The notes under the pieces were generated by a model. The model was not told the origin of the DNA and made no database searches. It worked only from the letters and a program-made list of their open reading frames with translations. This document shows, piece after piece, positions 3,537 to 28,149 of a DNA stretch of 64,000 nucleotides (positions are counted from its first letter, which is position 1; each line of letters begins with the position of its first letter). Made by a program: the position numbers and the translations under genes. Location: the NCBI GenBank assembly GCA_030390025.1, contig CM059430.1, forward strand, positions 62,620,001 to 62,684,000. The letters run 5' to 3'. Source of the stretch: Squalus acanthias (Eukaryota).

Positions 3537-5933
3537 TACAAAAGCAAAATACTGTGGATGCTGGAAATCTGCAATAAAAACAGAAAATGCTGCAAATACT
3601 CAGCAGGTCAGGCAGCATCTGTAGACAGAGAAACAGAATTAACGTTTCAGGTCGATGACCCTTCAGCACAGAGAATAGCGAACATTCACTTACAGCTGCT
3701 CGTTTCTGAGTTCAGTGATCACAACCCTACTCAGAACACGCCAGATCTTGAGTTTCTTAAAAACAACCCTCGACCCCGCACCACCAATCACCCCGACCCC
3801 ACCGCCCCCGCCGGCCACTGTCCATCAACGGAAGCCGCATTGCTGAACAATCATGGCAACAGAAAGGAGATGAAGCCTTTAGTAGAGGCCATGCCCTCGT
3901 TTATGCACCACTCGAGCCTCCTCCCATCCTTCCTCCATTTCTATCAGCATAACCCTCTATTCCCTTCTCCCTCATATGTTAATCTTGCCGCCCCATAAAT
4001 GCATCAACACTCAGTTAATCTTAAAGGCGGCAGTTCAATCAAGGCACAAATCCGTCAGTACCATATATTATTATATCTGTACACATTTTCTATCCACTGT
4101 ACCATTTACAATGGAAATTGCTACCGTAAGTTTGTCAAGCTGTATTTAGACCCTCCCCGCATTAGAGGCATTGCAGCGCCGCCACTGCCAGGGAGTGTAA
4201 TTGCAGGCTAACGGTTTAAGAGAAAATTTTGTAGAAATGAATATCGGAATTTACAGATCAGAATGTACATGACTTTAAATGGGTATAGAGGTACGTCTGC
4301 ATGCACTGGTCCAAATATCACCCAGCCTCTAACCTTGTGTCGCCTGATGACTACACTCCAGTTTGAATCGCCTTGTTGAGCTCAATGCGAGTTTGACTGT
4401 ATTTTAGAAAATGTACCTTACATTTAATAAAATGGCTGATGCAGACTTACATAATAGAAGCACTGTCAGTGACTTATGATAAGATGAGCTACAACATGAT
4501 AGGAAACCTTTGTGATGATGGTTACGTCATTTTGTGGAATATTTCAGCAAGTCCTGTTGCTGACAATGACTTACCCTACATATAAAAAGGACGCGGACGT
4601 AAAATTAAGTTACTTTTTCCTTCCTATTTTGCGAAGCCTCTTGGGACGTTTCCTTCTATTTTAAAGGCGTTATAAAAATATAGATTGTTCTTGTTGTTGG
4701 ATCCTGTGGTGGGTTCTGGTTTCAACTGGAAACATTCGCTCCTCTCCACACTTGACAACAAACATCAGATAAAACTAAGGGTGAGTGATTGTATGAATTA
4801 ATCAGCGAATTATAGGTAATAATTTGTGGCGTACTGTGTTACGCACACAATCTTATCTACAATTTTTAAGTGCGGCGTCCGTGTACACGTGCAATATGAC
4901 ACACCCTTTAGAATATCCTTCAAATCACGGTGAAGCCTCCCATGCACTCGAATTAGAAGAATATTACCCTTCACTTTTCTTAACATATTTTGCCCATTGA
5001 ACTCTTGACCTGGAATATCATTCGACGAACGGTTTTTGTTTATCTAGCTAACATATCTGCTATCAAATCAATTTGCATAGTTTAATCGTGGCTCCCACGA
5101 TTTTCCTTCTAACTTTTTAGGCGGGACGCGCTGATAACAGGAAATTGCATTTGCAAAGAATCCCTGACCTGAAACACACATCGACAGTTCTCTAATGGAA
5201 TCATCAAAGCTCTATTTCCTAAATATTCAATAAGGTTATTATAACGTGAAAATAATTCCCTACGTTATCACTGACGGTTCAGATTCAGGTAACTGTGTTC
5301 GGAATAGTTCAGGTCTCCAGAGATATAACACGTCACAATGAATAGGATCTCCCAAGTATTGCGTGGAATGTGCAGCGATGTGTGGAATTATAGTAGAACA
5401 GTCTCTATACACAACTACTGTGTTAAAAAGTCATTTTTCTCACATCCAGCCTTTCTCCTAAAATATTGCTATTGTTATTAAAGAACTGATTATAAACAAT
5501 TTATAAATGCTCCCAGTTTCCTCAGCTTTGACATTTCCAGTATATCGGGTGACGTTAAAAGCAGCGTACAGCCTAAGGGAAGTTTAAGACTATTTGCTCA
5601 ATGAGATTCACTGCAAGGAATGTGCACATTGGACATCTTAATCTGGGAGAAACCAACATTGCCTCAGTGATCGGTGGTAAATTCTCCATTTAAAATTCGG
5701 ATATTATTTTTCCTAATTCTTTGCTGACCGTGACATATGTGATTCCAATGGCTGCATAAGAGCAGAACGGTCATCAAATTTCACTTCACGAACGAAACCG
5801 ATTATTTAAGCCGCAGACACAGGATGTAAAACGTCATTGTGACGCATTTCAGTTTAAATAATCAGCAAACCCTGCTTTCAGTGGCAAACACACGGTCAGT
5901 GCAGTCAGTGATCCGTTGAATCTTTTGCTCGGA

Positions 5934-5994
5934 ATGTTGTCGAGTGTGATGTTTCTTTTCCTATTCCTGTCTCTCCTGGGGATCATTTACACAG
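5934..5994 (+). CDS. Gene A exon 1, signal peptide
   Basis: ATG at 5934, 20 mostly hydrophobic codons, ACAG|GTACCT donor; homologous exons in genes B and C. Confidence 0.8.
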
Positions 5995-8900
5995 GTACCT
6001 GTTATTCTCATTCGAGCAGTCTTGATAAAAAAACTTACCAGAAGTAGTTACCACACAAATTGAATGAAATATGGTTAGTCGATCTTTATTCTTGTTACTC
6101 ATTTTCATTTCCATGTAGTAATGTGTTCTAAAATATTTGGTTCCGCATAGAGTACCATTAACCAAACTTTGAATATATTTTCTAACAGCTGCTGCACGTA
6201 CTTCGATCAGCGTGTCTCAAACTCCCAGACAAGTAACTAAATTAAGGGGGGCAGACATCACCTTCCAGTGCTTAGTCCCCCGGTCTCTTGAAAATTCAGG
6301 GGTAGAAGTGCGCTGGTGGAAACAGGGTGAGAATGAATATCTGCAAAGAGGAGCCGATAACAGAAAACTATTTACTCTGAAAGATAATGGAATCGGTTTT
6401 TTTGAGTTACTGAACGTGACTTTCCGGGACTCTGGAATGTATCACTGCGCAGTGATCCGTCAGGGAGGAATTATTGGAAATGGAACAGGATCGCATCTAA
6501 CTGTGACCGGTAAGTGACTGGAGAGAGCGGGACCGTCCAAATGTATCAAATGTAACAAGGATGATGTTTTGTCATTGTTTTACTGCACCGTCTTCGATAT
6601 TATAAAACAATTATATTAATACATTTGCAGTGACCCTCTGCTGAGAATTGCTAATTAAATGGCATAATATGACGTTCCATTTGCTGAGTTCTGTAACATT
6701 CCATCAATATTAACCAGATTAAGTAGCACGTTACTCGATCCTTCTCAAAATGCATTTATTACATCAGACTTCTGAAGAAGGAAGTTACGGATCAAATTCC
6801 AAATTTATTGATGACTGAATTATTTTTTTTCTCTTAATGCGCCGCTCCCGCCATAAACACGGCTCTCTCAGGGAGCGACCGAGGATAACATTCTTCTCTC
6901 ATGTTTAATATCCCCCAGTAACCTGATTTTCTCCATTCTCTGTTCCGCAGCTGCCCCAACTCCATTGAAGATTGTCTCCAGCACACCCGAGACCAATTCA
7001 GCTGCGTCTCTGATTCTTGTATGTGAAACGGCTGAGTTTTACCCGGGCGATTTAACCCTCGTTTGGTATAAAAATGGCATTGAAACCGCAATTGGGATAA
7101 ATTTCACTAAACGGCAGAACACTGAGGGACTGTATGAAGTTTCCAGCTCTTTTGAAGAGACGCATCCTTTGCCGAACGGGGCTGTTTACATCTGTTTGGT
7201 ATCTCATGCCTCCCTCCGGACGCCCGCCATTCTCATCCACACAGGTACGAAGCCAATATGCCAAGGAGTGAGGTCAGCCTCTGTTATATTCTGAAAGGTT
7301 ATTTCATAGAGTTTGTTCATATTTAGAATCATTAAGTTAGTTTGGAAAGCGCCCAGAAAACAGCAAAGCAAAGAGAAAATTAGTGTTTCAATGTAAAATC
7401 TTATTGACACGGAGCCATAGTAAAACCGAATGATTATTATCGTTCTCCACCCCTGTTAAACTTCATCAGCTTCCAACTGTTAAACACATATGAGCAGGCG
7501 ATGTATCTCTTCTATCCAATTATTTTCATTTCTTGCTGATTACTCAAAATTCATTTGTTTCCCTTTATCTGGTTCCTTACATGAGTTGCAGAACCAGGAG
7601 CGGCAGTTCGTTTGTCTGATTTCGAGCGTCTCCTAGTGGGTCTCCTGAGCCCGACCTCTGATGGGCGATTCACTGTGAGGGTTTTTACACTGTAAATTAA
7701 TCGCAAACACAAACCCATTTCCTGTGTTCGCAGCTCTTATTTTTCAGCAATGGCCTTCTACCCCAAAGTGCTGGATAAGCCGAGCAACCTAGAACATACA
7801 CTAAAATTCCATCATGTTTCCAAATCCCAAGACTCCAACACAGGACAACATGATTAATCCTAGGTCGTACCTTCTTCTATTATGTTCAAGGTTACCTTAA
7901 CCTCCAACTTGACTGATCGAAATCTGTTTTATTGTTTCGTCCTGGCCACAGCTCTGTCTACACCCCTTCCAGCCACACAGTCTCCCCATCCCACTTACTC
8001 TCTTTGCATCACCTCTCCAAAAGCCTCTTTCACCTAGTACATGTTGCCTTCCATCTTCCCACATCACTAAGACAGTAAACAAAGATTAGAGATAGATGTT
8101 GAGTATATTAAAATTGGAAATTGTGTGGGAGCCAATACACAACATTTGGAACTACCTAAGGAGAGAAATAACAGAGATTCCATTCATTAGGAGTGAAACA
8201 GACAAAATGCAAAAGGATGCAGCATAGACCTTTAGATAGACGTTTACAGACACCACAATGAATACAATGTGTGACAAACATAACAATAGAAAAAATTAAG
8301 AAAGAAGAATGTGTAAGGCAAAGATAGAGAGGGCAGCACAAAAGTAATTCGCAAGTGGGAAAGAAGCAAAGATACAATTGCAAGAAGAGCAACACCACAG
8401 GAGACTGATGATATTATAACCCCCGGAGTCACCTTCTTGTTACAGAATAGCCTATGCTCAAACGTACTGTGCACACCATCATTGGAAATCCATATATAAG
8501 CTTATTTCCCATGGCTTTGCGCATGGCGAGTAAGAGGTTGTACTGCTGCATAGGAAGGAGTGTGGCTTTCTGAGGGATGTAAGTAGGAGCCGTGGACACC
8601 TGAATCGAAAGAATTTGGAAATCTTTTCATAAGGAACTGAAATTAAGGAAACCTTTTTGAATGGTTGCTGGAGTACACGGACAATTCATGGGAATATAAT
8701 AAAAAACACATAAAATCGATGTTTGAATGATTAGAGCAACCCAATGTGTTGTACAACCGGGTATCTCGTCTGCCTTACAAACATTCTCAGTATAACATTA
8801 GTAAGCCTTCATGTTCCTGTATTTGATACATAACACGTATAAACATGAGGCTTATCTTTGTTTCCCGATTATATTTCATATTTTGCTGATTGTTACTCTT

Positions 8901-10292
8901 TGTTTTGTTTCCATGTTAAAATGTTTATTCATTACCGTTATCTGGTTTTACTTCATCTGGACGATTACCTGAACCTACGGTCAAGTTGTCTGCTCTCGTG
9001 TTTCTCCCAATGCAGTTCCCCATCATGATCCGCTTTTTGGCGAGTTTGAATGAAGAGTTCTGAAATTAACCCTTTGACCAACTTCTAATCCTGGCAGAGC
9101 GGTCTGAAGTGGGCTCTGTCTCATACATTTAATTTAAACTGTGCTTACTGTCTGACTGCTGTGCAGCCAGTTACATAATTTAATTACGCACTGATAAACT
9201 CGGCAGACAATAATTAATAAACCATCTCCTTCACTATTCAGTGACAATCTTACTTCAATAAAGTACAGATATGTGAACTGGGGGTTTTAACCGATTTCTG
9301 CAAGTCGGCATTTTGTAGAGGGAACGGCGAAACAATTGTTGCCGAATTGCCTGGGATTACATTAGACAGTAAGTAAAGAACATAAGAAAAGTGACGAATA
9401 AGAACAAACCATTTGGTCGAGGGAAACATTCAGCTCGTATATTACCTCACCTACACCAATCCCTCTTCGCAGTTTATGCCATAATTGTCTCATTCATTTG
9501 ATGCGGAAGTCCCTCCCATTATTATATCTAAAACGAATAACAGTTTTTAATTAAAACATCCTTATTGCCGTTCAATACTACGGAGTTACTAAAACATCAA
9601 TAGTTCAAACAATGAACTCTGCTGAGGCCTCTTTTTAGGAAACACCCGTCACAATGTACAACTTAATATATTTACTCCTATTATTCTTGCAGTTAGTGTC
9701 GGTATGACCCCTTACGACTCGGGTTTTAGATATGCGGTGGATGGATTGGCGTTCCTGCTGCTCCTGATCATCATTGGGACGCACTGCCTATTGCAGATTA
9801 ATAAAGGTGAGGTCTATAGTAAGCATTTGATTTTCATACAATAATTCAGCGAGCAACGGGGGACGGGGGAGTGAGTGTTTCCGAGTAGCGCAGAGGAAGG
9901 AGAACTAAATTATGACTTAAAGTTGAAGGCAGTGCTATCTGATTTCAGGGAGCGCTGATTATTCCGAACAGCAACGGATTCAGCTCTTTAAAACTCAGAA
10001 ATACTCCCAGAATTTAAATTAAAAGTGTCTGATTATCTAGATATTTGCTACAGAAATTTCCACTTCGCAGCATGATGAATGGAACGTATGTTGAATAGGT
10101 GTGAGACTCCGGCCCGGACTGGTTGTACACCATTCCTGGTCTCTGCAGTGGGATTTCAAACACTGATAGCACAAAGTGAAATTGAAAATCATGTTCGGCA
10201 TTATACCGACTCTGGAAACTTCTTTGAAAACATTTATTACATTTCATTACTTCACAGGGAAAAATTGCTGCAAAGTGACCGAACTGGCGTGA
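5934..10292 (+). CDS. Gene A: non-rearranging VJ-C1-TM Ig-superfamily receptor with a short tail, ~274 aa. Exons 5934-5994, 6189-6509, 6951-7244, 9693-9806, 10258-10292
   Basis: Leader MLSSVMFLFLFLSLLGIIYT; V domain C...WW...DSGMYHC plus J-like GNGTGSHLTV; C1 domain LVC...FYP...WYKNG...YICLVSHASL; TM exon FRYAVDGLAFLLLLIIIG; tail GKNCCKVTELA*. All junctions are phase 1 with GT-AG, total 825 nt, open frame. The C1 donor and last exon are less certain. Confidence 0.8.
6189..6509 (+). CDS. Gene A exon 2, germline-joined VJ Ig domain
   Basis: ttttctaacag acceptor and G|GTAAGT donor; B-strand Cys, WW, DSGxYxC and GxGSxLxV G-strand all in one exon. Confidence 0.93.
6951..7244 (+). CDS. Gene A exon 3, C1-set Ig domain
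   Basis: ctctgttccgcag acceptor; C-x4-FYP, WYKNG, YEVSSS, YxCxVxHxSL; phase-1 donor ACAG|GTACGA (3' end ambiguous). Confidence 0.88.
9693..9806 (+). CDS. Gene A exon 4, TM exon with Arg and Asp
   Basis: ttattcttgcag acceptor, AAG|GTGAGG donor; VSVGMTPYDSGFRYAVDGLAFLLLLIIIGTHCLLQINK; 114 nt as in genes B and C. Confidence 0.85.
10258..10292 (+). CDS. Gene A exon 5, short cytoplasmic tail ending in an early stop
   Basis: atttcattacttcacag acceptor; GKNCCKVTELA-TGA; downstream donor CTG|GTACAT at 10299/10300; homologous to the gene B exon at 23356-23396. Confidence 0.6.
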
Positions 10293-10957
10293 GGAGCTGG
10301 TACATTTATTCATTCATCTCGCAAAAGGTTCAAATGTGAAGAAAGATTAATATCCTAATTACGTCAGAACTGTTTGTCCATTTACTAAAAGTATTTGTCC
10401 CGCTTAATGGGCCATTCAAATCGTATTCAGCGGAATATTTGTCGCCGGCGGGAAAGGATTTCACCCTCGAGGCGAAATTGCTGTTCGGAAAAAAATGCGA
10501 GCGCGGTGTAAAACCGGTTGCCGAATCGCTATCGCCTGTTTCGTGCTACCGACGAAGACCAATTTCAGCTGCGTCCCCGATGCGTTGCTGGTTTAAGTGA
10601 TTTTCTAGCAGACAAAAAAACGGTCAGCTTCGTCGAAAATGTACCTAAGTAATAACTGTTTATAGATTCAATATTGTTTGTAATTGGGCAACTCCGTGTT
10701 CTGGAACTACCGCTCGTTTAAACATTTCCGTGACACTGCAGTGTAAAACGAATATTGACAGGTTTAATTATGAGTTATAACGAACGCAGTACTCACCGGT
10801 CAAACATTCGCACTTGTTTCACTGCATTAATTATGCTTCCTGCCCTTTGTATCTAACCCATGTTGTTCTGTTCAATGTTTAAGCAGTAGTATGTAAGCTG
10901 GTGAAGGCAATGAACTAGCCACATTAGAAAATATATAATTATTTCTGGCCCATGCGG

Positions 10958-11360
10958 GAAGAAAAGGCTTAGATTGTTGATATGCTGCAGTAGGTTTGAG
11001 CAGAACTAAGTTAACTACAAGATGTAAACTTGAAGAGGAGAGTAATGTGTCCCATCAGCCGGGGCTGGGTAGCGGATCAGAAAGACACAGATCACCAGTG
11101 CAGCACCAACATTCATGCGATAACTGAGACTACAAGTTTGGGTGACTCGGATCGTGTAGTGTACCTCAAGCTGTCTGTGTGTTATTCTGATGATTGTTTT
11201 CGGCAGCAGTCCACAAAATTGGCAAAACGACCAATTTACAATATTTCCAAACACGGGCTTACCGACAAAACAAGGGACCTACGCGACTCTAGATTTGTCA
11301 GGCTCGAAAAAGCATGGACTCCAAAAATAAAAAAAACAGGGTAACATATTCCGGTGTTAT
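10958..11360 (+). pseudogene. Decayed ITIM-tail exons downstream of gene A (relics at 10958-11058 and from 11265)
   Basis: Aligns to gene B tail exons. Acceptor cag>cgg, in-frame TAG, 1-nt deletion, donor gt>cc; second acceptor cag>ccg; residual YAAV and TYATLDL. Confidence 0.7.
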
Positions 11361-13499
11361 ATTATTGAATGTGGGTGTAATAGTTTATTATTGTCTTACT
11401 TATTTGAGGAATTTTCATTTAATTACTTGTAAGAAAATCAAATTGCCTTTCATATTTTTGATCAATCTGTAGCATTTCACAGATGACAAATCCTTGTTTT
11501 GCTGTATCTAAATATCATCATACATAAATTCAATAAAAATATATTTTATATGACCTCTGTTATCAATCAACCAATCCTGATTTATTGAACTTTTGCGGGT
11601 AAAACTGTGAAGCTGAGTTTTGAATTGTGTGTTGCGTTACCGTGTTCTGACCTCCTGTGCAGGCGATTCTCCTGGTTTGGAAGGCAGGGCGCTCTAGTTT
11701 ATGGACTCTTCCATAAACCCACTGAGCACAGCTTGCAGATGAAGGCGTATAAGATGCTTTTCTTTAAATTCTGTATGGCTAGATCACTTGAATTACCGGG
11801 TTAGAACATTGTGTGGCAGCCGATCAATTCCAGTGACCAAGGATTTAGCTCCGAATGTAAAGATAATACAAGACGAAGTGAATCCGTTGCTTCTTGTTCT
11901 GCCGAACTCTTCTGGCTTGATGACTGTGTGCATTAACAAGCGTTTTACAGCAGAGAAACAACGTCTGTACTTTTCTCTCTCTCCACATGAACCACTCAGT
12001 TAGTTCCATTTACCATTTAGATTCACACAATCGTTAATATCCCTCTTTTTCTAGCAACTAATTAAATTCTAACAGAACTCTTGGGCTGTGATTCCACAAC
12101 GTTTTGTGGCAGAGAACGTCCACATCTCATGTTCTAACCAACCTCTGAGCAAAGAGTATTTTACCTCTCCCTTTATTTTTCCCGATTATGTTAAAGTTGT
12201 GTTCACTCGCCACCGTCTACTGGACAGTGAAAATAAACTATCACTGTTTCCTTGTCATAACGCCTTGTACTTTTGAAAACCTCTATCAAGTCACTCAACA
12301 AACTTTTGTGCTCCAGTTAAAGAAGTCCACTTTTCTCAATTAATAACTCTCCATTCTTGGTCAGTTCGGCGGCGCATTTTAATTTATTTTTTATTCTTCC
12401 ATAGTTCTACATAATCTCCTACACCAGTTGAACATAATCTCCTTGCTTCTGTAATCGATACCACCAAAATCTAAACCAAGACACACCCTTTATATTTTTA
12501 CTTTGTAATAAACTGCTGTTTCAACCAGTCATTGATGTCCATCTGCTCCTCTGCAGCTTTTAAAATCCTACAATTCAAGATGCATTTCCTGTTCCTAAGT
12601 GTACCTGCAAAAATATACCATTTCACATTTCCCTGCATTCTACATCAAACATTTATCTGCCCTACAAATTAACGATCGATGTCGTCTGCTGCATTTCACG
12701 ATCTGCGTCATAATTTCTTTCCCGATTCCCCATGAAGTGCCATCTGCACGTTTTAATGATGCACCCACAGTTCCCCAGTCAAGATAATTGATGTGTATAA
12801 TTTATAGAAGTAGCCGAACGCAGCGTCCTTGGAACATCACTCGCTACGTCTTAGCACGAGAAAAGTCCTTTTACACTTAAACTTTGTTTCCTCTCTTCCA
12901 ACTATCTCTCTAACCATGTGGCCACCTTGCCCTTACTTCCACGTGGCGTTATAGTATGTGGGACGGTATCCAATGCGTTTTGAAAATTTATATAAACTTC
13001 ATCTATTGCCTTTCCTTTGACTCTTTCGTATTTCTTCAGTGAAGCCTATAAGTCAAGCGCAATCTTCCCTTTTGAAATTCGGGCTGACTGGGATTGATTA
13101 GCTCAGGTTTCTGCAAGAGATTAGCAGTTTTATCCGGAATGACACAGAGCTTGCGAGATGTAAGTAAATGTGCAAATGTTTCCTTGCCGTTTTGTTGCCA
13201 TCTGTGTCACATTCTAATTGCTCATCTAATAAAAATGCATTGGCTTCGAGCTGGAGATTTAGTCAACGTGGAGTAGATTATTTTGATAATTATGTAAACT
13301 AAAGTAACACATTCACGTACAGCAGTCAAAACATGAACATTTGGGCGTTCTATCAGTCCCGGGTTCTGATAAGATGTAAGGTATCAACGAAGGCATTGAC
13401 CAGTCTGCTTTCAGCTGCACGAGACGTTGTGCTAAATATTGACAAGAGTGTATCGATTTCTCTAGCTAAGTAAACAACACGACTGAGTAGCTCAGCTCT

Positions 13500-13855
13500 C
13501 CATGGCAAGTATATCCATCCTTAGGTAAGGAGAGCAAAGCTATACACAATACTCCAGGTGTGGTCTCACCAGGGTCCTATATAATTGCAGTAAGACGTCT
13601 TTACTCTTATACTCAAATCCTCTTGTAATAAAGGCCAACATACCATTTGCTTTTCTAAATGCTGGCTGTACCTGCATGTTAACTTTCAGTAATTTGTGTA
13701 CACGGACACCCAGGTCCCTCTGAACACCAACATTTCCAAATCTCTCACCATTTAAAACATACTCTGCTTTTCTATTTTTGCTACCAACGTGGATAACTTC
13801 ACATTTCTCCAAGTTATATTTCATTTGCCATGTTCTTGCCCACTTCTTAGCCTGG
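13500..13855 (-). mobile_element. CR1 fragment truncated at the inversion breakpoint
   Basis: KYNLEKCEVIH...LVRPHLEYCV; the right-arm counterpart extends further (39790-40760). Confidence 0.85.
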
Positions 13856-15713
13856 ATTAGAAATTAGAAATTCTTTGCAAATCTGCTCCCTCATCACCAC
13901 CAAACTCTAGTTCTATTATGTCAAACGGTGTGATAGGAACAACTTGAATGCGCAACATTACGCACAAAAAGTTTACAGTTAAGGAGAAATTGAATAAAAT
14001 GCGCTTGATTGGTAGAACTCTCTTGACATTTTGGACAATATGCAGAACCTACAATTTGTTAGCCCATGTGATCAACGTTACAGTATTCTAGGATATGAAA
14101 AAATTGCAGTGCGTTTCAGAGATTTAACCAATTTAACTGTACTTAAATATGTGTGTGGATGAAATAAAAAGGCAGAAAATGTACACGAAAACACTTAGAG
14201 AAACATATGAAAATGGAATGTATAAAAAAGTGACAGACGCCTGAAGGCGATGCACTTACACATTCCCATCTGTACCAAGAGTGAGGTTAGGACAGTTACA
14301 ATGACAAATGTGAAGTAGAATCAGTTTTGAATGTGAACATTAAGTTTTGTTTTACACTGAAACATGCGATGTGAAATAACTGCTGCTCTTCAGCACTAGA
14401 TACATTTTCAGTATGTTGCAATTAACGGAGTTAAATTTAGAACAACACGTGTTGGTGCTTTGAGCTGAGCCACTGAACCGCTTCCTTTAATTAGCTCGCA
14501 TAAGCGATTCGCCCTGGTCAATATTTAGCAGTACATCAGTGTAGCGAAAACCAGAAGGTAAAAACCCCAGCTAATCGCATTTAGTTTATCAGAACTGATC
14601 GTTCGCCCACATATTGACCTTTTAAATCATTCACATAGATGTGCCACTGTTTCGGTTAATGGATTATCAAAATAATTTACAGCACTTTGTCTCCAGTTTG
14701 AAGCAACGAATTGTCACTAGACTAGAAAATCGAATTTTAAGTAAATTGTAACATAATAACAGGTAAACAGTTGCACATTTACTGCAATTTTGCGGCCCCT
14801 GTCATTCGGGATAAAACTACAAGGTTCTTGTAGAGACCTGAGCTAATCAAGGCAAATCAGCACGGATTTCGAAAATGCAAACCGTGCTGGACTTCCTTTC
14901 TAGAATTCTTTGAAGAAACAGCAGTGAGAATAGTTCAAGAAAATGCAGCAGATGTCATTTGCATAGATTTTTTAAAATAATCAATTGAGGATAATGAGTC
15001 TTGCAAGCAGAATGCATGGCAACTTTCAAAACGGAAGCGGATATATACTATTGCAGGACTTTGATGAAAGAGGGCGAGAATGGGATAATTAGATAGATCT
15101 TTCAAAGTGCCGGACGGGCACAATGGGCCGCATGGTCTCCTTCCGTGCTGTAAGTTTCTTTAATTCTACGTGGCCATATGGGTAGACAGATGTTTGCAGG
15201 ACATAAAACAACTGGTAGCTTGTTTCAGCAGCTTCACCCGATTCACATCAGGAGCGTCACCTGGACTGGAAGTCAGAATGCAGTAACGCGACACATAAAT
15301 CAATGCACAGGTTTTGCAGTATTACTCGCCAAAAATTAGCACGAATCGTTCATTTGTGAGCAGTTGTATATAATATATTTTTATTGAACTCATGTTTGAT
15401 GATAATTAGCTACAGCAAGGCTATTACCGTATCATTGTAATCGAAAGAGTAGAGATTTGTCTTCAGTTAAATAATAGATTTAACATTAAAATACGTCAGG
15501 AAAGTTACATTACTTAAAAACAGCTAAAAGAAAATTTATCAAATAATTGTACAGTAATTAATAGCTATAGACTGCTTTCTCTGATATATCACTGGAATGC
15601 TTTACCTCCTGGAGGAATGGTATGTCACGCTTTACAAACGCGTGGAGTTGATATGGCAGCGGAATGCATTTAGTGCACACCAAAAATGTGGTTTCTGCAT
15701 CTAAAATGTATTG

Positions 15714-15887
15714 CTAATTGATTTTTCCTTCTGTGTACAAAGGCTCTGTAACTCCTCTTTGTTTTTTTGTCTGCAACTGGGCATACTCTGTGCTTCTTTC
15801 GTTATGTTTGCATTTCCCCGTTTTCTCTGAGTTAGTCAATGCTAGAGTCGTGTATGTCAGCTTGCCACGGCCTGTCCCATTTTCGGT
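15714..15887 (-). CDS. Terminal cytoplasmic exon, distal copy, with ITIM LTYTTL and ITSM-like TEYAQL
   Basis: Phase-0 acceptor ggctttacag; TENGTGRGKLTYTTLALTNSEKTGKCKHNERSTEYAQLQTKKQRGVTEPLYTEGKIN*. Confidence 0.8.
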   Translation of the reverse strand, partial: TENGTGRGKLTYTTLALTNSEKTGKCKHNERSTEYAQLQTKKQRGVTEPLYTEGKIN

Positions 15888-16094
15888 CTGTAAAGCCAAT
15901 GTTTGGGAATATTGTTAATTGGCCTTTTTGCAAGTTCAGTGGACTGCTGCTCAAAGCAGATATCAGAAGTACGCACAAATAGCCTCAATACATCACACGG
16001 TTAAATTCAGCACAAACATATTCCTTCTGCTATCGCATTAATGTTGATCTTACACTGGTGATCTATGTTTCTCTGATCTGTCACTTAGCCCTAC

Positions 16095-16196
16095 CTGATC
16101 GTACACGGTTCCCTGCTCTTCATGTTTACGTCTTGGAGTTTTCTTGGCTTTGCTCATTTCGAATGCAACATAATGCAGGATCTCAGCCGCTGCTCC
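16095..16196 (-). CDS. Cytoplasmic exon, distal copy (LHYVAF, TVYDQ)
   Basis: 102 nt, open, cag acceptor and GTAGGG donor; paralogous to 19299-19400. Confidence 0.72.
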
Positions 16197-16361
16197 CTGC
16201 ATGGGTCACAAAGAAAATGTTTGGTTATGTCGTCAGTTCATTGTTTTCACCAGTTTACGTACCGCTGATCAAACATTCAACAGATTGACCGGGGCTGGAG
16301 TTCAAGTGCACAAACGATAGTTCATATATATATAGGTAAGTGGGAATATTAAGGCACTGTG

Positions 16362-18662
16362 GTTTTAGAAGAGAAAGGCAAAATATAAAAGGTGGGGCGG
16401 TAGCCCTGATAATAATGGAGGGGATAAAGACAGTAGAAAGCAAGCATCTTAGCTCGGAAAATCAAGGTATCGAATCATTTGCTGGAACTAAGAAACAACA
16501 AGGGACAACACGGTTGGTATTAGTGTACAGGCCCCCTCCCACTATTTGTAGTGTCGGGCACAGTATAAATCAGGAACTTTGAGGTGCGTGTAACAAGGTG
16601 GAGTAAACATTGGGGAGATTAATTTTAATATAGACTGGACAAACCAAATTTGCAGTAACTCTGCAGCAAACGAGTTGTTGAAATGCATTCAAGATAGTAT
16701 TCTGGATCAAAATATCGAGGAACCAACTAGGCAACAGGCTATTTTAGAACTAGTATTGAGCAATGAGACAGGGTTAATTAATAACCTTGCATTAATGGTG
16801 CCCCTGGGGAAGAGTAATCATAATATGAGAGAATTTTATATTGTCCCAGAATTTGTGGTGGATATGATGGCGTACTCTTGGAGTACGCAGTCATACTGCC
16901 TTTGAAATTGACCACAAGTTCAGGATTTTTGCATGCGCTTGCTTATTCACTAAATCCAGAACTTGTGGTCCGTCAATTTGCACGTTGACAGATTATCTAC
17001 AGATCCACCAAAAACCTAATTGCTGGTGCAGAGTTGGGCTAATTGCCCACCAGCTGCCCAGCAATTATGTACGGAAATTTTATGGCTGGTGAAAGCAGTC
17101 ACAGGGCCTGTTTCCACAGTGTAAGGGGATAGCCGAAATGAATAAAAATGCTTTTTTTTAATTAAATGACATCCAGGAACATTAAATGCTTTAATGCGAA
17201 GCAATCCTAATGTACGATAAAGCAGCAGGTTTTTAAAATAATATTTACATTCATGATTTCCTGCACAGTGCACGGTATTTATTTAAAAGTGGGAATTACG
17301 AGTAATGAATTGGATTCCCATGATAAAAGCTCAATCTGTAATGTATTTTAAAGGCTGTAATGATTAAGTAAGGTAGTAATTTAAATGAATGAAAGACAAT
17401 CTGTTACCTGATTGGAGGAGCAGGCACACGTGTTCCCAGGTACGCCTCTGCACAGGCTGCTTCCCTGGGACCTGTGAACCATTACCCTGCCCTCCTACTC
17501 GCAGCGTCAGAGAGCAAGCTTACAAAGGAGGGCCACCATCGGGTTGGTGCGTATTCTTTTTGTAGGTCTGCGCCACACTCTGGAGCGATGCCGTGGAGCG
17601 CAATTTTTGGGCTTTTGAGTTTGAGTGATTTAGTTAAGTCCGAATTTGGGAGTAAATCTGAACAAATCAGAATATGTAGGTATGAGTCGTTGTTGGCTAA
17701 GGTAGATTGGGAAACTCGATTAACAGATATGATGGTAAATAAGCAATGGCAAGCATTTAAAGAATCAATTCATAATTCACAACAAATAACCATTCCCTTG
17801 AGGAATAAGAACCCCACGCAAAAATTGGTCCAACCGTGGCTTACAAGAGAGTTTAAAATAGTATTAAATTAAAGGAAGAGGCTTATAATGTTGACAAGAA
17901 AGAGTAGTAAATCTGACAAGTGGGGGGATTTTAGAATTTAGCAAAGGGTGAGCAAAAATTGATAAAGAAAGAGAAAAGAGAATATGAGATTAAGCTCGCA
18001 AGAGACATGAAAACAGATGGTAAAAGCTTCTATAGATATGTAAAAAGGAAGATGTTAGCGAAAATAAACGTGGGTCTCTTACAGGCTGAGACAGGAGAAA
18101 TTATAATGGGGAATAAGGAAATGGCGGAAACATTATTCAAATATTTTGTGTCCGTCTTCAGTGAAGAAGACAGAAAAAAGATTATGTAAATAATGCGTAA
18201 CCAAGGTTCTAATGAGAGTCAGGAACTTAAATAAATTAGTAATAGTAAAGAAATTGTACTGGAGAAATTAACGGGACTAAAAGCTGACAAATCTCCTGGA
18301 TCTTATGGCCTACACTTAGGGTTTTACATCAGGAGGCTACAGAGATAGTGCAAGCATTGGTTTTGATATTCCAGAATTCCCTAGATTCTAGAACGGTCCC
18401 TGTGCACTGGAAGGTAGCAAATGTAACCCGCTATACAAAAAAGGAGGGAGAGAGAAAACAGGGAACTATAGGCCAGTTGGCCTGACATCTGATGTAAGGA
18501 ATGCGAGCATATGTTATTAGGGATGTGGTAACAGAGCAGTTAGAAAATTATAATATGATCGGGCAGAGTCAACACAGATTTATGAAAGGGAAATCATGTT
18601 TCAAAAATCTGTTAGAGTTCTTTGAGCTTGTAACTAGCAGGGTAGATAAGAGGGAACCAGTG
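16362..18662 (+). mobile_element. Degenerate CR1 ORF2 (endonuclease to RT N-terminus), interrupted by a MITE
   Basis: GGAVAL, VYRPP, EPTRQQAILELVLSN, KSFYRYVK, SQHRFMKGKSC. Confidence 0.85.
16843..17613. mobile_element. Diverged MITE (PIF/Harbinger-like) inside the CR1
   Basis: Termini gtcccagaattt...aatttttgggc and AT-rich core; the CR1 sequence resumes on both sides. Confidence 0.6.
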
Positions 18663-18920
18663 AGTTTATCATCAGTTAAATAATAGATTTAACATTAAGC
18701 ATGTCAGGAAGGGTACTTTTTCTTAAAAGCAGCTAAAAGAAAATTCATCAAATAATTGAACAGTAAGTAACGACTATAGACTGCATTCTCTGATATATCA
18801 CTGGAATGGGTTACCTCTCGGAGGAATGGTATCGCACGGTAAACATACGCGTGGAGTTGATATGGTAGCAGAATTCGATCAAAACACAACAAAAAGTGAC
18901 TTCTGCAGCAAACTTTATTG

Positions 18921-19093
18921 CTAATTGATTCTTACTTCTGTGTAGACAGCCTCTGTTACTTTTCTTTGTTATTTTGTCTGCAGCTGGCCATACTCTGCGC
19001 TTCTTTCATTATTTTTGCATTTCCCCGTTTTCTCTGAGCCAGTCAATGCTAGAGTCGCGTATGTCAGCTTGTCACGGGCTGTCCCTTTTCGGT
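18921..19093 (-). pseudogene. Terminal cytoplasmic exon, proximal copy (frameshifted): LTYATL, AEYGQL, AVYTEV
   Basis: ggctttacag acceptor; 1-nt deletion and AAA>TAA relative to the 15.8-kb copy; AATAAA directly after the TAG (18914-18919). Confidence 0.75.
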
Positions 19094-19298
19094 CTGTAAA
19101 GCCAATGTTTGAGAATATTGTTACTTGGCCTTTTTGCAAATTAGTGGACTGCTGCTCAAAGCAGACATCAGAAGGACGCATAAATAGCCTCAATACAACA
19201 CACGGTTAACTTCAGCACAAACATATTCCTTCTGCTATCGTATGAATGTTGATATACACCAATGATCTATGTTTCTCTGATCTGTTACTCATTCTTAC

Positions 19299-19400
19299 CT
19301 GAGCGTACGCGGTTCTCACCTCTTCACGTTTAGGTCTTGGAGTTTTCCTGGCTCTGCTCAAATCTAATGCAGCATAATGCACGGTCTCAGCCGCTGCTCC
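19299..19400 (-). CDS. Cytoplasmic exon with ITIM VHYAAL, proximal copy
   Basis: ttcctttctgtcccatgcag acceptor, CAG|GTAAGA donor, 102 nt, phase 0-0: GAAAETVHYAALDLSRARKTPRPKREEVRTAYAQ. Confidence 0.8.
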
Positions 19401-19745
19401 CTGCATGGGACAGAAAGGAAATGTCTGGTTATGAGGCCAGTTCATTGCCTTCACCAGTTTACGTACCGCTGATCAAACATTGAACAGATTAATCTGGGCT
19501 AGAGATCAAGTGCACAAACCATAATTTATATATATTTAGATAAGTGGGAATATTAAGACACTGTGAACATTATAACTAATATTTAAACCTGTCAATGTTC
19601 ACTCTGCAATACAGCGTTACAGAAATGTTTCAATTGAGCGGCAGCTTTAGACTGTAAAGTTCTTTTTTTAAATCCAAAGAATAGATGAATCTATAAACAG
19701 ATATCACCTAGATTTTCAACGAAACAGGCAGTTTTCATTTCTGCC

Positions 19746-22330
19746 ATGGAGAGGGGAGCAGAAAGGATCAAACCAGGAGGAGGAGAGCGGATCGAGTGGG
19801 TAGGAGGTGCGATCAAAGAGGAGAGGAGAGTGGATCGAAGCGGGGAGAGCAGCTATTAAAAATAGGAGCTCGGAGAAAGAAGCTCGCAGGGGAAGAGGAG
19901 CTAGGAGAGAGATAAGCTCGGAGAGGGGAGAGGGGAGAGAGGAGTCCGGAGTGGGGAGGGAGGAGCTCAGAGAGGGAGAGAAGATCAGGAACTCAGTAAA
20001 ATAATGGGACTCAAGGCAGATAAATCCCCTGGACCTGATGGCTTACATCCTAGGGTCTTCAGGGAAGTGGCAGTGGGGATTGTGGATGCTTGGGTAATAA
20101 TTTTCCAAAATTCACTGGACTCGGCAAAGGTCCCGGCAGATTGGAAAACTGCTTCTAATGTAACACCCTTATTTAAAAAGGGTAGTAGGCAGAAGGCTGG
20201 AAATTATAGACCAGTTAGCCTAACAGCTGTGGTGGGTAAAATTTTGGAGTCTATTATTAGGGAGATAGTAACGGAACATTTAGATAAACATAATTTAATA
20301 GGACAAAGTCAGCATGGCTTTATGAAGGGGAAGTCATGTCTGACAAATTTGCTTGAGTTCTTTGAGGACATAACGTACAGGGTGGATAAAGGGGAACCAA
20401 TGGACGTAGTGTATTTAGACTTCCAGAAGGCATTCGACAAGGTGCCACATAAAAGATTATTGCTCAAGATAAAAAATCACTGGATTGGGGATAATATTCT
20501 GGCATGGCTGGAGGATTGGTTATCTAACAGGAAGCAGAGAGTTGGGATAAATGGTTCATTCTCGGACTGGCAACCAGTAGCCAGTGGTGTTCCGCAGGGG
20601 TCGGTGCTGGGTCCCCAACTCTTTACAATCTATATTAACGATTTGGAGGAGGGGACCGAGTGTAACATATCAAAGTTTGCAGATGATACAAAGATGGGAG
20701 GGAAAGTAGAAAGTGAGGAGGACATAAAAAACCTACAAGGGGATATAGACAGGCTGGGTGAGTGGGCGGAGATTTGGCAGATGCAATACAATATTGAAAA
20801 ATGTGAGGTTATGCACGTTGGCAGGAAAATTCAGAGAGCAAGTTATTATCTTAATAGCGAGAAACTGGAAAGTACTGCAGTAAAAAGGGATCTGGGGGTC
20901 CTAGTGCAAGAAAATCAAAAAGTTAGTATGCAGGTGCAGCAGGTGATCAAGAAGGCCAACGGAATGTTGGCTTTTATTGCTAGGGGGATAGATTATAAAA
21001 ACAGGGAGTTATTGCTGCAGTTATATAAGGTATTGGTGAGACCGCACCTGGAATACTGCATACAGTTTTGGTGTCCATACTTAAGAAAAGACATACTTGC
21101 TCTCGAGGTAGTACAAAGAAGGTTCACTCGATTAATCCCGGGGATGAGGGGGTGGACATATGAGGAGAGGTTGAGTAGATTGGGACTCTACTCATTGGGG
21201 TTCAGAAGAATGAGAGGCGATCTTATTGAAACATATAAGATTGTGAAGGGGCTTGATCAGGTGGATGCGGTAAGGATGTTCCCAAGGATGGGTGAAACTA
21301 GAACTAGGGGGCAAAATCTTAGAATAAGGGGATGCTCTTTCAAAACTGAGATGAGGAGAAACTTCTTCACTCAGAGGGTAGTAGGTCTGTGGAATTTGCT
21401 GCCCCAGGAAGCTGTGGAAGCTACATCATTAAATAAATTTAAAACAGAAATAGACAGTTTCCTAGAAGTAAAGCGAATTTGGGGTTACGGGGAGCGGGCC
21501 GGAAATTGGACATGAGGCCGAGTTCGGATCGGACAAGGCCCTGTGGGTGGCGGAGCGGGCCCAGGGGCTGAGTGGCCGGGTCCTGCTCCTACTTCTTGTG
21601 TTCTTTAGATTTGAGGTTAGGATCAGATCAGCCATGATCTTATTGAATGGCGGAGCAGGCTCGAGGGGCCGATTGGCCTACTCCTGCTCCTATTTCTTAT
21701 GTTCTTATGTAACTCGTAGGGAGAATATCAGGGACTTGCGGGTGGGGGCGGGGTGGAGGGTAATGTCATCAACTCGGGGAGAGAAAGTCAGGAGCTTGTT
21801 GGGTGGGGCACGGTGAGAAAGATGGGGAGGTGGGAGGAACGTGTCCAGGTCTAAAGCAGGGGGTTGAGAGCAAGAAAGTGATCCAGATAGGAAGATGCAG
21901 GTGCACATGCGCACTCGATCGAGACGCGCATGTGCAGTAACAAATGGTGCGGCGGCTGCGGCCTGCACAAGCACACTTTCGTCAGCTGCGTGCGGAGGTC
22001 AGGGGAATGTGGAGAGAGAGGAGAGTGGATTGTAGGTGAGAGAAGAGGAGGGGAGTTAAAGTGGGCAGCAGAGTGGATCCAAGGGGGCAGGGAGGAGAGG
22101 GGATCGAAGTGGGGGAGACGAGCTCGGAGAGAAAGGAGCTCGGAGAGAGAGGATATCAGAGAGAGGAGAGAGGAACCCGGAGAGGGAGAAGAAGGCCAGG
22201 AACTCGGAGAAAGGTCAGGAACTTCTTGGGGGGTAGTACAGTGAGAACAGAGGAGAGGAGGGAAGAATGTGATCCAGGTCTAAAGGGGGGGAATGTGAGC
22301 AAGAACCTGATCCAGATGGGAGGGTAGATC
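19746..22330 (+). repeat. Purine-rich (GA/GGAGA) low-complexity tract split by the young CR1
   Basis: Strong G+A bias at 19746-19995 and 21712-22330 with recurring gagctcggagag-like units. Confidence 0.6.
19996..21710 (+). mobile_element. Young 5'-truncated CR1 LINE with an uninterrupted 503-aa RT ORF (20004-21515)
   Basis: KSPGPDGLHP, NYRPVSL, YLDFQKAFDKVPH, GVPQGSVLGP, KFADD; 3' UTR ending (TTCTTATG)n. Confidence 0.96.
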
Positions 22331-24064
22331 ACGTTCTCCCGCCCTCTGTTCGGACTGGACTACGCTCTTCCACCACACTTCCTTCACACCTGCTCAACGT
22401 TCGCCCTCTCCTTCCCCACCAACACCACCCAGACCGCAGCAGTTCAAGAAGGCAGCTCAATACCACCCTCTCAAAGGCAAATAAGGATGGGCAAAAAATA
22501 AATTAATGTTAAATATGAGAGCCTATTCTGTGTTGGTCCTATAACCTGAATAATATTACATTTATGTTTTATTTCCCGGACTTGACTATTCCAATGTTCT
22601 CCTGGCCAGCTCCCATCTTCCACCGTCAGTGAACTTGAGCTCATCCAAAACTCTGCTGCACTTATCCTAACATGCAGCAAGTCTCATTCACCCACTACCC
22701 CTGTGGTCGTTGACCTAAATTAGCTCATGGTCCACCAATAATGTTCCCGCTAAGCTACACGGTCAGCAGCTGCCAGGAGGTCCCATGCAGGCTGCTTACC
22801 GGTGTTTGAATGGGAGATTTGGTGCAAGCAAGAAATTTTGAATGGGCTGTGCAGCCCGTTAAAGGGATCGTGCACCCCTCAAAAATTAGGGGGAACATTG
22901 TAAACCAACAGAATGATTTTAAAATTCTCATCTCCATGTTAAAATCCCTCCATGGCCTCACACCTTCCTTTCTGAACTCTGCATTGTGAGCGCTGTGAGT
23001 GCTCCTAACCCGAGAGGGTGAGCCCTGTCTGTTTTCTGAAAGTACTAGTGTTCGCACTGTGAGTTCTGGAGCCTGGCTGTCACAATGAATGGATCATATT
23101 ACTCATTGCAAAGATCTTGATTACTCTCCAGCAGGCATGGTCAAATTACACATTCCAGACAAACTGTTGAGTGTGTCTTGTCCTCCAAGGGGACCGATCA
23201 GAAATCTGATCTTGTCCTCGAAGGGGACCAATCAGAAATTTCGTGTTGCAACCAGACACGACCGTAGACTTAAGCTATTCTGACGTGATTATGATATAAT
23301 CTTTCCATTATAGCAACCTTGACATTTCAACCATCTACCAGGATGAATGAATGAACTCTTCACGGCGGTTCGGTCTCGTTACACATTCTTCTTTACCTGA
23401 AAACGAATGAAATTGAATGATATTGAAAGATTGAAATATTTACTCAGTTTCCGTGTCAATGATTGAAAAGACATTTCTCGAGTCAGAACAATGCATAAAC
23501 TAATTTCCAATTCCGCATTGTGCCGATAGTGTTTGAAATCCAAGCCCTTGTAGCGATCAGCAATGGTGCATTTTTTGGATTTTTTTTCGAAAACTGAGGG
23601 AATCGTTTTGGACACTAAGGGAATCAAGGGATATGGGAATAGGGTGGGAAAGTGGTGTTGAGGCTCGAGGGGTCGTATAGCCTACTCCTGGTCCTATTTC
23701 TTATGTTCAGATGTGTACAACCATTCCCCGGCCAGAGCCTCACACTCTTTCACTCAAACTAGTTGTGCATCCACAACAGAATGTGTGGGAAAGTGATTGT
23801 GTGTCAGGGTACATGTCATTTATTATGCTGCAAAGGGGGCATTTTTGTTGCAAACATCCAGATAATTATCTCCATTTTTATTACGATTCTCTGAGAATGT
23901 CTGCGTTTTAAAAATGCATTTGGTACAATCGGCGCTCTCTGAAAACAGCTCACACGGTTTTCAACTTTAATTCCGAATCGAGTTCTCATTTCCCCGTGTT
24001 ACCCGGAGACTGTCACTACCCGTGGGGTTTTAAACTAAAATGAAGTGCTTACATTAGATCTTAC

Positions 24065-24178
24065 CGTCATTATTCTGCAGTCGGCACCGCGTCCCAATGA
24101 AGATCATTAGCACTAGAAACGCCAATCCACCCACCGCACACGCAGAAGCCCAGAAGTAAAGTGAATTATCGACAATAC
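24065..24178 (-). CDS. Gene B TM exon, uncharged
   Basis: GIVDNSLYFWASACAVGGLAFLVLMIFIGTRCRLQNND; 114 nt; AG/GTAAGA boundaries. Confidence 0.85.
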
Positions 24179-25353: not shown

Positions 25354-25665
25354 CTTGGTTAAGTTTAGAAACAGTAAGGGTGACAAGAGCTGAAGTCTCG
25401 AGAGAGACATGAGAAACCAAACAGTTATAACGGGCGTCGCTCGGGACAGGCTGTGTCTCAACCAAAGAGCTGGAAACTTCAAACAGTCCCTCCGTGTTCT
25501 GCACTTTCCTGGTATGTATTCCTAATGCAGTTTCGATGCCATTTTTATACCAAGTGAGGGTGAAATTCTCCGGACAAAACGCAGCCGTTTCACACACAAA
25601 AGACAGAGAAGCAGGCGAATTCCCTTCAGGTGTCCTGGAGACAATCTTCAGTGGGGTTGGGGCCG
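25354..25665 (-). CDS. Gene B C1 exon (open)
   Basis: APTPLKIVS...FVCETAAFCPENFTLTWYKNG...YNCLVSHVSL...NQ; ttccgcag acceptor, CAAG|GTATGA donor. Confidence 0.88.
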
Positions 25666-27355: not shown

Positions 27356-27654
27356 CAATTACTATTAGATGTGATCCGGTTCCATTTCCTCGAACTATTC
27401 CCCGATGGAACACTGCACAGTGATAGACTCCAGAATCTCGGAAAGTCGCGCTCAGCAACTGAAAGAACCCTCTCGCTTTCTGTTATCGGCGCTTGTGCGC
27501 AGGTATTCATTTTCACCCTGTTTTCACCAATACACTCTTACCTTGGAATTGTCCGGCGAGATGGGGAATAAGCAGTATAAGGTGATGTTCCCCCCTCTGG
27601 ATACAGTCGCTTGTTTTGGCACTTGAGTCACTCGGAACGTGTTGTTGTCCGCTG
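27356..27654 (-). pseudogene. Gene B VJ exon (disrupted)
   Basis: VTQVPKQATVSRGGNITLYCLFP...VYW*KQGENEYL...[frameshift]GFFQLLSATFRDSGVYHCAVFHRGIVRGNGTGSHLIV. Confidence 0.88.
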
Positions 27655-28149
27655 CTGTCAGAAAATATAGTCAAGTACAGGTTAATTGTATTAGAGATGA
27701 CCTGGGGATAGAAGACAGAAAAAACCTAGATAGAGATATTGCGGTTCACTAAATGAATGCGGAAACTACTTCGGATATGTAAATTAAAGTAGCTGGGACA
27801 ATGAATAAAGAATTGCCTGTGTAAAAAATCTGGCGGAGATTCAGGCAAAGGAAAAGCAAAGCCGCCGACATTCGGAGCAACTGATGACTCTCTGCATTAA
27901 CTGCGAGTTTGCAACTGTTAAAAAAGGTTTGCGGTTTATTTTCAATTAGATATGCCGCAATGACATTTGACATCATGTAACTGAGGGTTCAGAAATTTGC
28001 CTTCGTTTGTGAAGTGGGATTTTCTAACTTCTGCACTTAATTCGACTGCTCGAATCACATGTGTCACAGACAGCAATGAGTAAGGTAACATTTTTGATTT
28101 TCAAATGCAAAACTTACTAACACACGCGGAGTCAGTGTTGTTTCTTGAC

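Follow-up and report, generated by a model that had tools for sequence, protein, structure and literature searches.

The genome of the shark Squalus acanthias (assembly GCA_030390025.1) was analysed here over a 64-kb window of contig CM059430.1 (C6 below; the window is C6:62,620,001-62,684,000, and coordinates given without a contig are window positions). Our subject is a set of tyrosine-rich tail exons behind gene B, a gene of this window that has a leader, an unsplit variable-joining (VJ) exon, a C1-set immunoglobulin (Ig) exon and a transmembrane (TM) exon. On the minus strand, behind the TM exon, a two-exon cassette consisting of a 102-nucleotide (nt) module exon and a terminal exon, joined in phase 0, is present twice (Table 1). 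All four acceptors at the locus read CAG and both 102-nt exons have a GT donor. The proximal cassette lies 4.7 kb and the distal one 7.9 kb from the TM donor at 24065, in agreement with the 5-8 kb given in a preliminary description of the interval, whose phase-0 exon reading VHYAAL...TAYAQ with good splice sites is likewise borne out for the proximal copy.

The two terminal exons differ in condition. When the proximal one is spliced in phase 0, a TGA (19066-19064) follows after 9 codons; LTYATL, EYGQL and AVYTEV stand in another frame, in which a TAA (18971-18969) precedes AVYTEV. Therefore the stop that adjoins the proximal AATAAA is not a reading-frame stop, since the spliced frame ends early and the motif frame has an earlier TAA. 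The preliminary description was right about the hexamer, which follows the old TAG by one base, and wrong in taking that TAG for the end of the frame. Its list of terminal-exon motifs mixed two copies: LTYxTL stands, TEYAQL belongs to the distal copy only (the proximal one reads AEYGQL), and the break in the proximal frame was missed. The distal terminal exon is open, and LHYVAF in the distal 102-nt exon no longer fits the consensus of the ITIM (immunoreceptor tyrosine-based inhibitory motif). The strict form of the ITSM (immunoreceptor tyrosine-based switch motif), TxYxx(V/I), is absent from both gene B cassettes, the motifs of the family reading TEYAQL, TVYAQT and TAYAQT. Pfam gave no match for either tail exon type.

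Gene B is a pseudogene, having a stop and a frameshift in its V exon, a GC donor in its leader, a lost linker donor and a broken proximal terminal exon; its V exon still has a GT donor (GTAATT). Phase 1 at the end of the TM exon is brought to phase 0, in which the tail exons begin, by the 44-nt linker exon; with the donor of that exon lost, neither cassette can be reached in frame by the usual splice path of the family. The preliminary description had correctly given the two tail exons compatible phases but overlooked this linker and the fact that gene B is a pseudogene. The tail exons are most likely silent in gene B itself. A sister pseudogene at C6 62.51 Mb, here called S, is 94-96% identical to gene B over the aligned blocks; the damage to gene B is not a single assembly slip, because S shares the 292-nt V exon and has further, different lesions of its own. 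Two further candidate exons, small stretches of about 122 and about 37 nt that lie between TM and tail, did not hold up, as their lengths and stops vary among paralogues and their phases do not fit. Inside the linker-to-tail intron lies an open 536-codon reverse-transcriptase-like frame (19905-21515, plus strand), part of a repeat that we take to be of the long interspersed nuclear element type.

Table 1 Gene B exons, tail cassettes and the duplicated segment, in window positions.
Feature	Position	Strand	Remarks
Leader exon	27817..27871	-	donor GC; GT in paralogues
Germline-joined (unsplit) VJ exon, broken	27363..27654	-	TGA at 27526-27524; 292 nt against 321, frame lost
C1-set exon	25354..25665	-	open; Pfam C1-set E 5.9e-8
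TM exon	24065..24178	-	114 nt, open; helix without charged residue
Remnant of 44-nt linker exon (phase 1 to 0)	23357..23396	-	acceptor kept, donor lost
Proximal tail module exon	19299..19400	-	102 nt, phase 0/0, open; CAG before, GTAAGA after; ITIM VHYAAL, second tyrosine (TAYAQ) +23 residues
Proximal terminal exon, broken	18921..19093	-	173 nt, one base below the 174-nt form; CAG acceptor
AATAAA, proximal	18914..18919	-	one base past the old terminal TAG; same position in 3/3 proximal copies (B, S, I)
Distal tail module exon	16095..16196	-	102 nt, phase 0/0, open; LHYVAF ... TVYDQ, first motif degenerate
Distal terminal exon	15714..15887	-	174 nt, open, CAG acceptor; LTYTTL (ITIM), TEYAQL, PLYTEG
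AATAAA, distal	15380..15385	-	about 330 nt past the distal stop; a poly(A) hexamer occupies this place in most paralogues
Proximal copy of duplicated segment	18665..19565	-	pairs with 15456-16361
Distal copy of duplicated segment	15456..16361	-	907 aligned bases, 86% identity to 18665-19565
Spacer between copies	16362..18664		right part (18265-18662) matches the reverse-transcriptase-like repeat frame at 19905-21515

A clustered V-C1-TM family

The exon chain of the family to which gene B belongs runs leader, VJ, C1, TM, 44-nt linker, 102-nt module exon and terminal exon. Exons were mapped in 17 regions and then in 14 more, and six paralogues were spliced in silico along this chain. All six are open, encode 369-375 amino acids and have AG and GT at every junction; four start with ATG, and two (L032 and L033), which have ATT or ATA at that position, are not counted as intact. 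Each has a single C1 exon, as does gene B, and they are 60-74% identical to RefSeq models from Heptranchias. The intact tail has five tyrosines: a first ITIM, a tyrosine 23 residues on, a second ITIM at +14, TEYAQL at +23 and a last tyrosine at +16. Two canonical ITIMs per tail stand behind an uncharged TM in the models of an intact paralogue, gene I, and of L040+39 and L046+47; the distal gene B copy keeps one.

Genome searches placed tails and V exons together. With the distal terminal exon as query, 65 candidates yielded 60 matches at E<=10, 57 of them on C6, and the 33 with E<0.001 belong to the same cluster; the V exon of gene A, a neighbour in the window, gave at least 126 matches (150 of 231 candidates scored), of which 122 are on C6 and span 57.5-76.9 Mb. 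A same-strand V lies within 17 kb upstream of 30 of the 33 tails with E<0.001, against 2 of 33 in a strand-flipped control; this count used 120 of the V matches, six second fragments of split exons having been dropped, and the 17-kb limit was chosen with knowledge of V-tail distances already measured in mapped genes. The three tails without a linked V are decayed orphan remnants of terminal exons at C6 61.476, 61.779 and 67.911 Mb, with no V within 45 kb. The preliminary description had assigned the exons to a VJ-C1-TM family and had named attachment to an unrelated gene as the outcome that would speak against this. The linkage count, and the same exons joined to V-C1-TM in RefSeq models and in the spliced intact paralogues, uphold the assignment. 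That the motifs arose by chance or come from an unrelated gene, for which only their shortness argues, is already refuted by the V linkage and by those RefSeq models, and we give it practically no credence.

The family extends beyond Squalus. Against a protein database, the distal terminal exon was 80% identical to two RefSeq proteins of Heptranchias, one of them at E 1e-14, among 17 candidates, and the full isoform XP_067853772.1 reads leader-V-C1-TM followed by the same three cytoplasmic pieces (linker, module and terminal exon). Similar V-C1-TM-tail models are found in other sharks, rays and Callorhinchus, among them XP_067853494.1 (Heptranchias), XP_007902824.2 (Callorhinchus) and XP_067905935.1 (Heterodontus), under automatic names as different as SIRP-alpha-like, tapasin-related-like, CD276-like, MHC II beta and Ig lambda. 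They share the exon chain and tail of the family, whereas gene B differs in being a pseudogene with a doubled cassette. A tail profile searched against 1.84 billion representatives recovered 21 proteins, and the 15 with a species name are all from a shark, ray or chimaera. A whole-protein profile gave 63 matches, 56 of them chondrichthyan at E<=4e-57 and the others at E>=7e-15 (five teleost, one clam and one without a name); no tetrapod protein is among the 63, in a search limited by its word index. The listed matches of most species seem to share one contig per species, as would be expected if each genome, from chimaera to rays, held a single conserved cluster.

A literature search returned no description of the V-C1-TM cluster, which subscription papers and supplements may cover. 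The part of PMC10751288 drawn on here treats the non-rearranging VJ-C1 genes UrIg, NKp30 and PRARP, the cluster not being among them, and neither SIRP nor ITIM is mentioned in the main text of PMC12227049, by a term search, or in one supplement of PMC3964593. Three RNA runs mapped to paralogue L033 gave repeat matches and a few low-depth pieces without a splice joint, and the same runs put no read on 18700-19760 of the window; both results are silent on expression.

Genes A (5934-11330, plus strand) and C (48303-43000, minus strand) form an inverted pair of 95% identity (3537-13854 against 50699-40405). Both have an open leader, V, C1 and TM, the last of another type with arginine and aspartate near its start (FRYAVDG), and both hold decayed remnants of the family linker and tail exons. 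They are likely short-tailed forms derived from long-tailed genes. At least six further genes at C6 61.9-62.7 Mb (L076-L078, L081, L082 and L084) have this TM type, in some cases behind V-C1 exons that belong to the long-tailed subfamily, a hint that inhibitory and short forms have exchanged ectodomains. Another subfamily (L040+39, L046+47, L048+49, L054+53 and L056+55) combines a V-C1 of gene A type with a TM and tail of gene B type, with a linker-to-tail intron of 8-13 kb.

The two-tyrosine module and its doubling

The two tail exon types resemble each other, as the preliminary description had noticed. Their profiles align with an hhalign probability of 94.6 (E 7e-8, 32 columns), and at the DNA level the 102-nt exon aligns without gaps, or nearly so, to bases 1-111 of the terminal exon, ending at the module donor codon. 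A codon-shuffle control scored as high in 0 of 1000 trials in each of four genes (4/4). Since the alignment ends where the module donor sits, the terminal exon is a module that runs on past the old donor position. By these alignments, the two exon types are ancient duplicates of one two-tyrosine module, and the proposed internal duplication is thus well backed. Among the 16 open cassettes out of 20 examined, four of the five tail tyrosines are kept in all 16 and the fifth in 14. Database models carry from one to several modules and up to 10 tail tyrosines; P0035, P0036, P0038 and P0061 have at least three modules, with 6-10 tyrosines. Ectodomains vary too, P0035, P0036 and P0041 reading V-TM with little or no C1 and P0013 reading V-V-C1. 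The Heptranchias RefSeq model P0008 ends in GQPVTS, the shifted frame that the proximal terminal exon of gene B gives, and a short tail with two tyrosines may recur by frameshift or by use of another acceptor.

Three genes carry the cassette twice. Beside B and S this is gene I, at C6 62.77 Mb (62.756-62.769 Mb; region L037+L038, C6:62754000-62771000, minus strand). Gene I is colinear with gene B at 84-93% and is intact, with both cassettes open. In a midpoint-rooted tree of 20 cassettes, which has one long row, the distal cassettes form a clade with support of 100/99 and the proximal ones a weaker clade (89/96), with I outside (B,S) in each. Because both copies show (I,(B,S)), the doubling happened once, before the split of I and B. 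A single duplication of about 1 kb in the ancestor of B, S and I, after which B and S died, would explain the three genes on this tree. That event is most simply read as a tandem duplication in place, but the distal and proximal clades form an open fork and are not shown as sisters, which counts against this reading.

That fork leaves room for another origin, in which the distal cassette once belonged to a neighbouring paralogue that lost its V-C1-TM part to unequal crossing-over and kept only this tail. Divergence between the copies is 14-15%, as great as that between subfamilies, and the three orphan remnants show that the cluster holds decayed tails without a nearby V. However, the stretch between the cassettes yielded no trace of a linker, TM or C1 exon, and in B, S and I the two copies have no more than about 0.9-1.0 kb in common. 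We regard this origin as rather unlikely.

It may also be asked whether the doubled cassette is functional in gene I, gene B being a dead copy. The two cassettes would then serve as alternative last exons or as chained phase-0 modules, and tails of 5 or 7 tyrosines would tune inhibition. The three gene I splice paths tried are all open with canonical sites and give 371, 371 and 405 amino acids, the last chaining both modules. Distal cassettes are open in three of three genes, whereas both pseudogenes have a broken proximal terminal exon; the AATAAA stands directly after the stop in the proximal copies and at about +331 in the distal ones, and the database models with at least three modules show that longer tails are predicted elsewhere. 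On the other side, pairs of distal cassettes have ratios of nonsynonymous to synonymous substitution (dN/dS) of 0.81, 0.99 and 1.62, and their exons diverge about as much as the flanking introns, so that there is no sign of the second cassette being maintained (about 90 codons, low power). Open frames over 3-9% divergence need no selection, and the first distal motif in B and S is no longer an ITIM. A functional doubling is thus possible, yet we hold it to be doubtful, and we keep to the single old duplication, after which genes B and S died.

Comparison with SIRP and other immunoreceptors

The preliminary description had called the tail SIRP-alpha-like. The alternation of ITIM and TxYxx(L) pairs is indeed similar, but strict ITSMs are lacking and orthology is without evidence. 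In both families an ectodomain with V and C1 domains is followed by two-tyrosine modules of similar sequence, spaced by 23 residues here and by 24 in SIRP-alpha, and both have long-tailed forms beside short-tailed forms with a charged TM. They differ in that the shark family has one C1 domain while SIRP has two (PMC12975943, in the part consulted), spreads five tyrosines over module exons, carries an arginine near the TM start in its short forms, and has a single cluster with over 100 V exons. Profile searches are divided. With the whole-family profile, SIRP-alpha ranks 3 among 7901 PDB sequences; with the V domain alone, no SIRP chain is in the best 60 of 797; and with the C1 domain alone, SIRP-alpha scores like antibody heavy chains, below UrIg2.

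A chondrichthyan SIRP orthologue that binds a CD47-like self ligand would account for the VJ + C1 ectodomain, for the modules of form xTYAxL ... TEYAx(L/I), for inhibitory and arginine-bearing forms side by side, for the whole-family rank and for the many models automatically named SIRP-alpha-like. Against it stand the single C1 domain, the V-only and C1-only profiles without SIRP preference, the lack of tetrapods among the 63 profile matches of the word-index-limited search, and the mixture of automatic names. Gene order adds to this. Human SIRP is flanked by NSFL1C and SNPH, and matches to the SEP domain and the syntaphilin family, two markers only, were found on C8 and C11 and not on C6. 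We therefore find orthology distinctly unlikely: the likeness is one of function and motif, and membership of SIRP is unsupported on the number of C1 domains and the location of the markers, with the profile searches divided on sequence affinity.

Tails with an ITIM and an ITSM also characterize CD33-related Siglecs, PD-1 and PECAM-1, and the shark tail likewise places a TxYxx motif some 20 residues after its membrane-proximal ITIM. Siglecs have a V-set domain, with a sialic-acid-binding arginine, and C2-set domains. The second domain of gene B scores above the Pfam cut-off as C1-set and below it as C2-set, and because this domain is C1-set the family is not a Siglec family. The unsplit VJ exon followed by C1 is shared with UrIg, NKp30 and PRARP (as the consulted part of PMC10751288 describes them), and UrIg2 is the top PDB match of the C1 profile and the second of the whole-family profile. 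UrIg differs in its linkage with the MHC (major histocompatibility complex) and in having several C domains (same part of PMC10751288), while the shark family is anchored in the membrane and bears ITIM tails. None of the 50 MHC class I matches falls on C6, and many sit on unplaced contigs.

An AlphaFold model of a Heptranchias member shows two confident Ig domains, one helix (235-269) and a disordered tail, with a mean predicted local distance difference test score of 69 and values below 50 in the tail. Foldseek with this model returned antigen-binding fragment and T-cell receptor (TCR) chains at a TM-score of about 0.27, without discrimination.

Proposed signalling and significance

SIRP-alpha is phosphorylated by Src-family kinases, binds the tandem SH2 domains of SHP-1 and SHP-2 and inhibits, according to the consulted parts of PMC12975943, PMC5589908 and PMC5413580, and a SIRP-alpha peptide that activates SHP-2 runs from ITYADL to TEYASI, 24 residues from tyrosine to tyrosine (PMC5589908, in part). 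By analogy, ligand binding by the V domain would lead to phosphorylation of a module by Src-family kinases, and the two phosphotyrosines of one module would engage the tandem SH2 domains of SHP-1 or SHP-2, as the two-tyrosine motif of SIRP-alpha does. Short-tailed sister genes with a TM arginine might then be activating partners. Intact family members would thus likely act as inhibitory receptors through recruitment of SHP-1/SHP-2.

We consider it highly probable that the interval holds two copies of the cytoplasmic tail of the broken gene B, derived from a large, clustered, non-rearranging V-C1-TM family whose intact members are likely inhibitory. Several observations weigh against this interpretation. 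The second and fifth tail tyrosines mostly fit neither the ITIM nor the strict ITSM consensus. The family junctions rest on genomic splice signals and RefSeq predictions, no transcript having been seen for any member. The pooled dN/dS of the tail within the subfamily is 0.69 (bootstrap 0.48-1.04), estimated from close paralogues including pseudogenes, and indicates weak constraint at best. A count of basic residues at the TM start speaks for the interpretation, with limits. Of 13 short-tailed proteins 10 have arginine or lysine there, as have 4 of 39 long-tailed ones, the pattern of a paired family; kin share the trait, so that the count is not phylogenetically independent, and a short model may in some cases be a prediction cut short. 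The count covers the 52 distinct database proteins in which the TM is clear, out of 84, after short, TM-less and duplicate entries were dropped.

The tail could instead be of a switch or activating type, working through SAP/EAT-2 or Grb2, given that its TxYxxL and TxYxxT motifs are similar to ITSMs. Two canonical ITIMs per intact tail, the uncharged TM and the absence of the YxxL-x6-8-YxxL spacing of immunoreceptor tyrosine-based activation motifs make this very improbable. A bolder combination is also conceivable: a paired-receptor complex of cartilaginous fishes with more than 100 antigen-receptor-like VJ-C1 genes, descended from an ancestor shared with SIRP, that tunes inhibition by duplicating and alternatively splicing the phase-0 module, gene I switching between 5- and 7-tyrosine tails. 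We rate it as quite improbable, and retain the likely inhibitory V-C1-TM family with a dead, doubled tail in gene B.

New here are the linker exon, the finding that the cassette was doubled once and long ago, and an intact paralogue, I, with that doubling. As the family is already modelled in RefSeq under loose names, the gene B copy is a fairly ordinary relic. These exons are a relic in a dead gene, and the receptor cluster that they mark matters more. A number of phase-0 modules that differs between genes offers a simple route to changed signalling strength. The cluster, with long ITIM tails or short ends with a TM arginine, is very large, chondrichthyan-wide and a candidate shark counterpart of KIR, LILR and SIRP, and the family is a living relative of the kind of gene that is held to have given rise to Ig and TCR.

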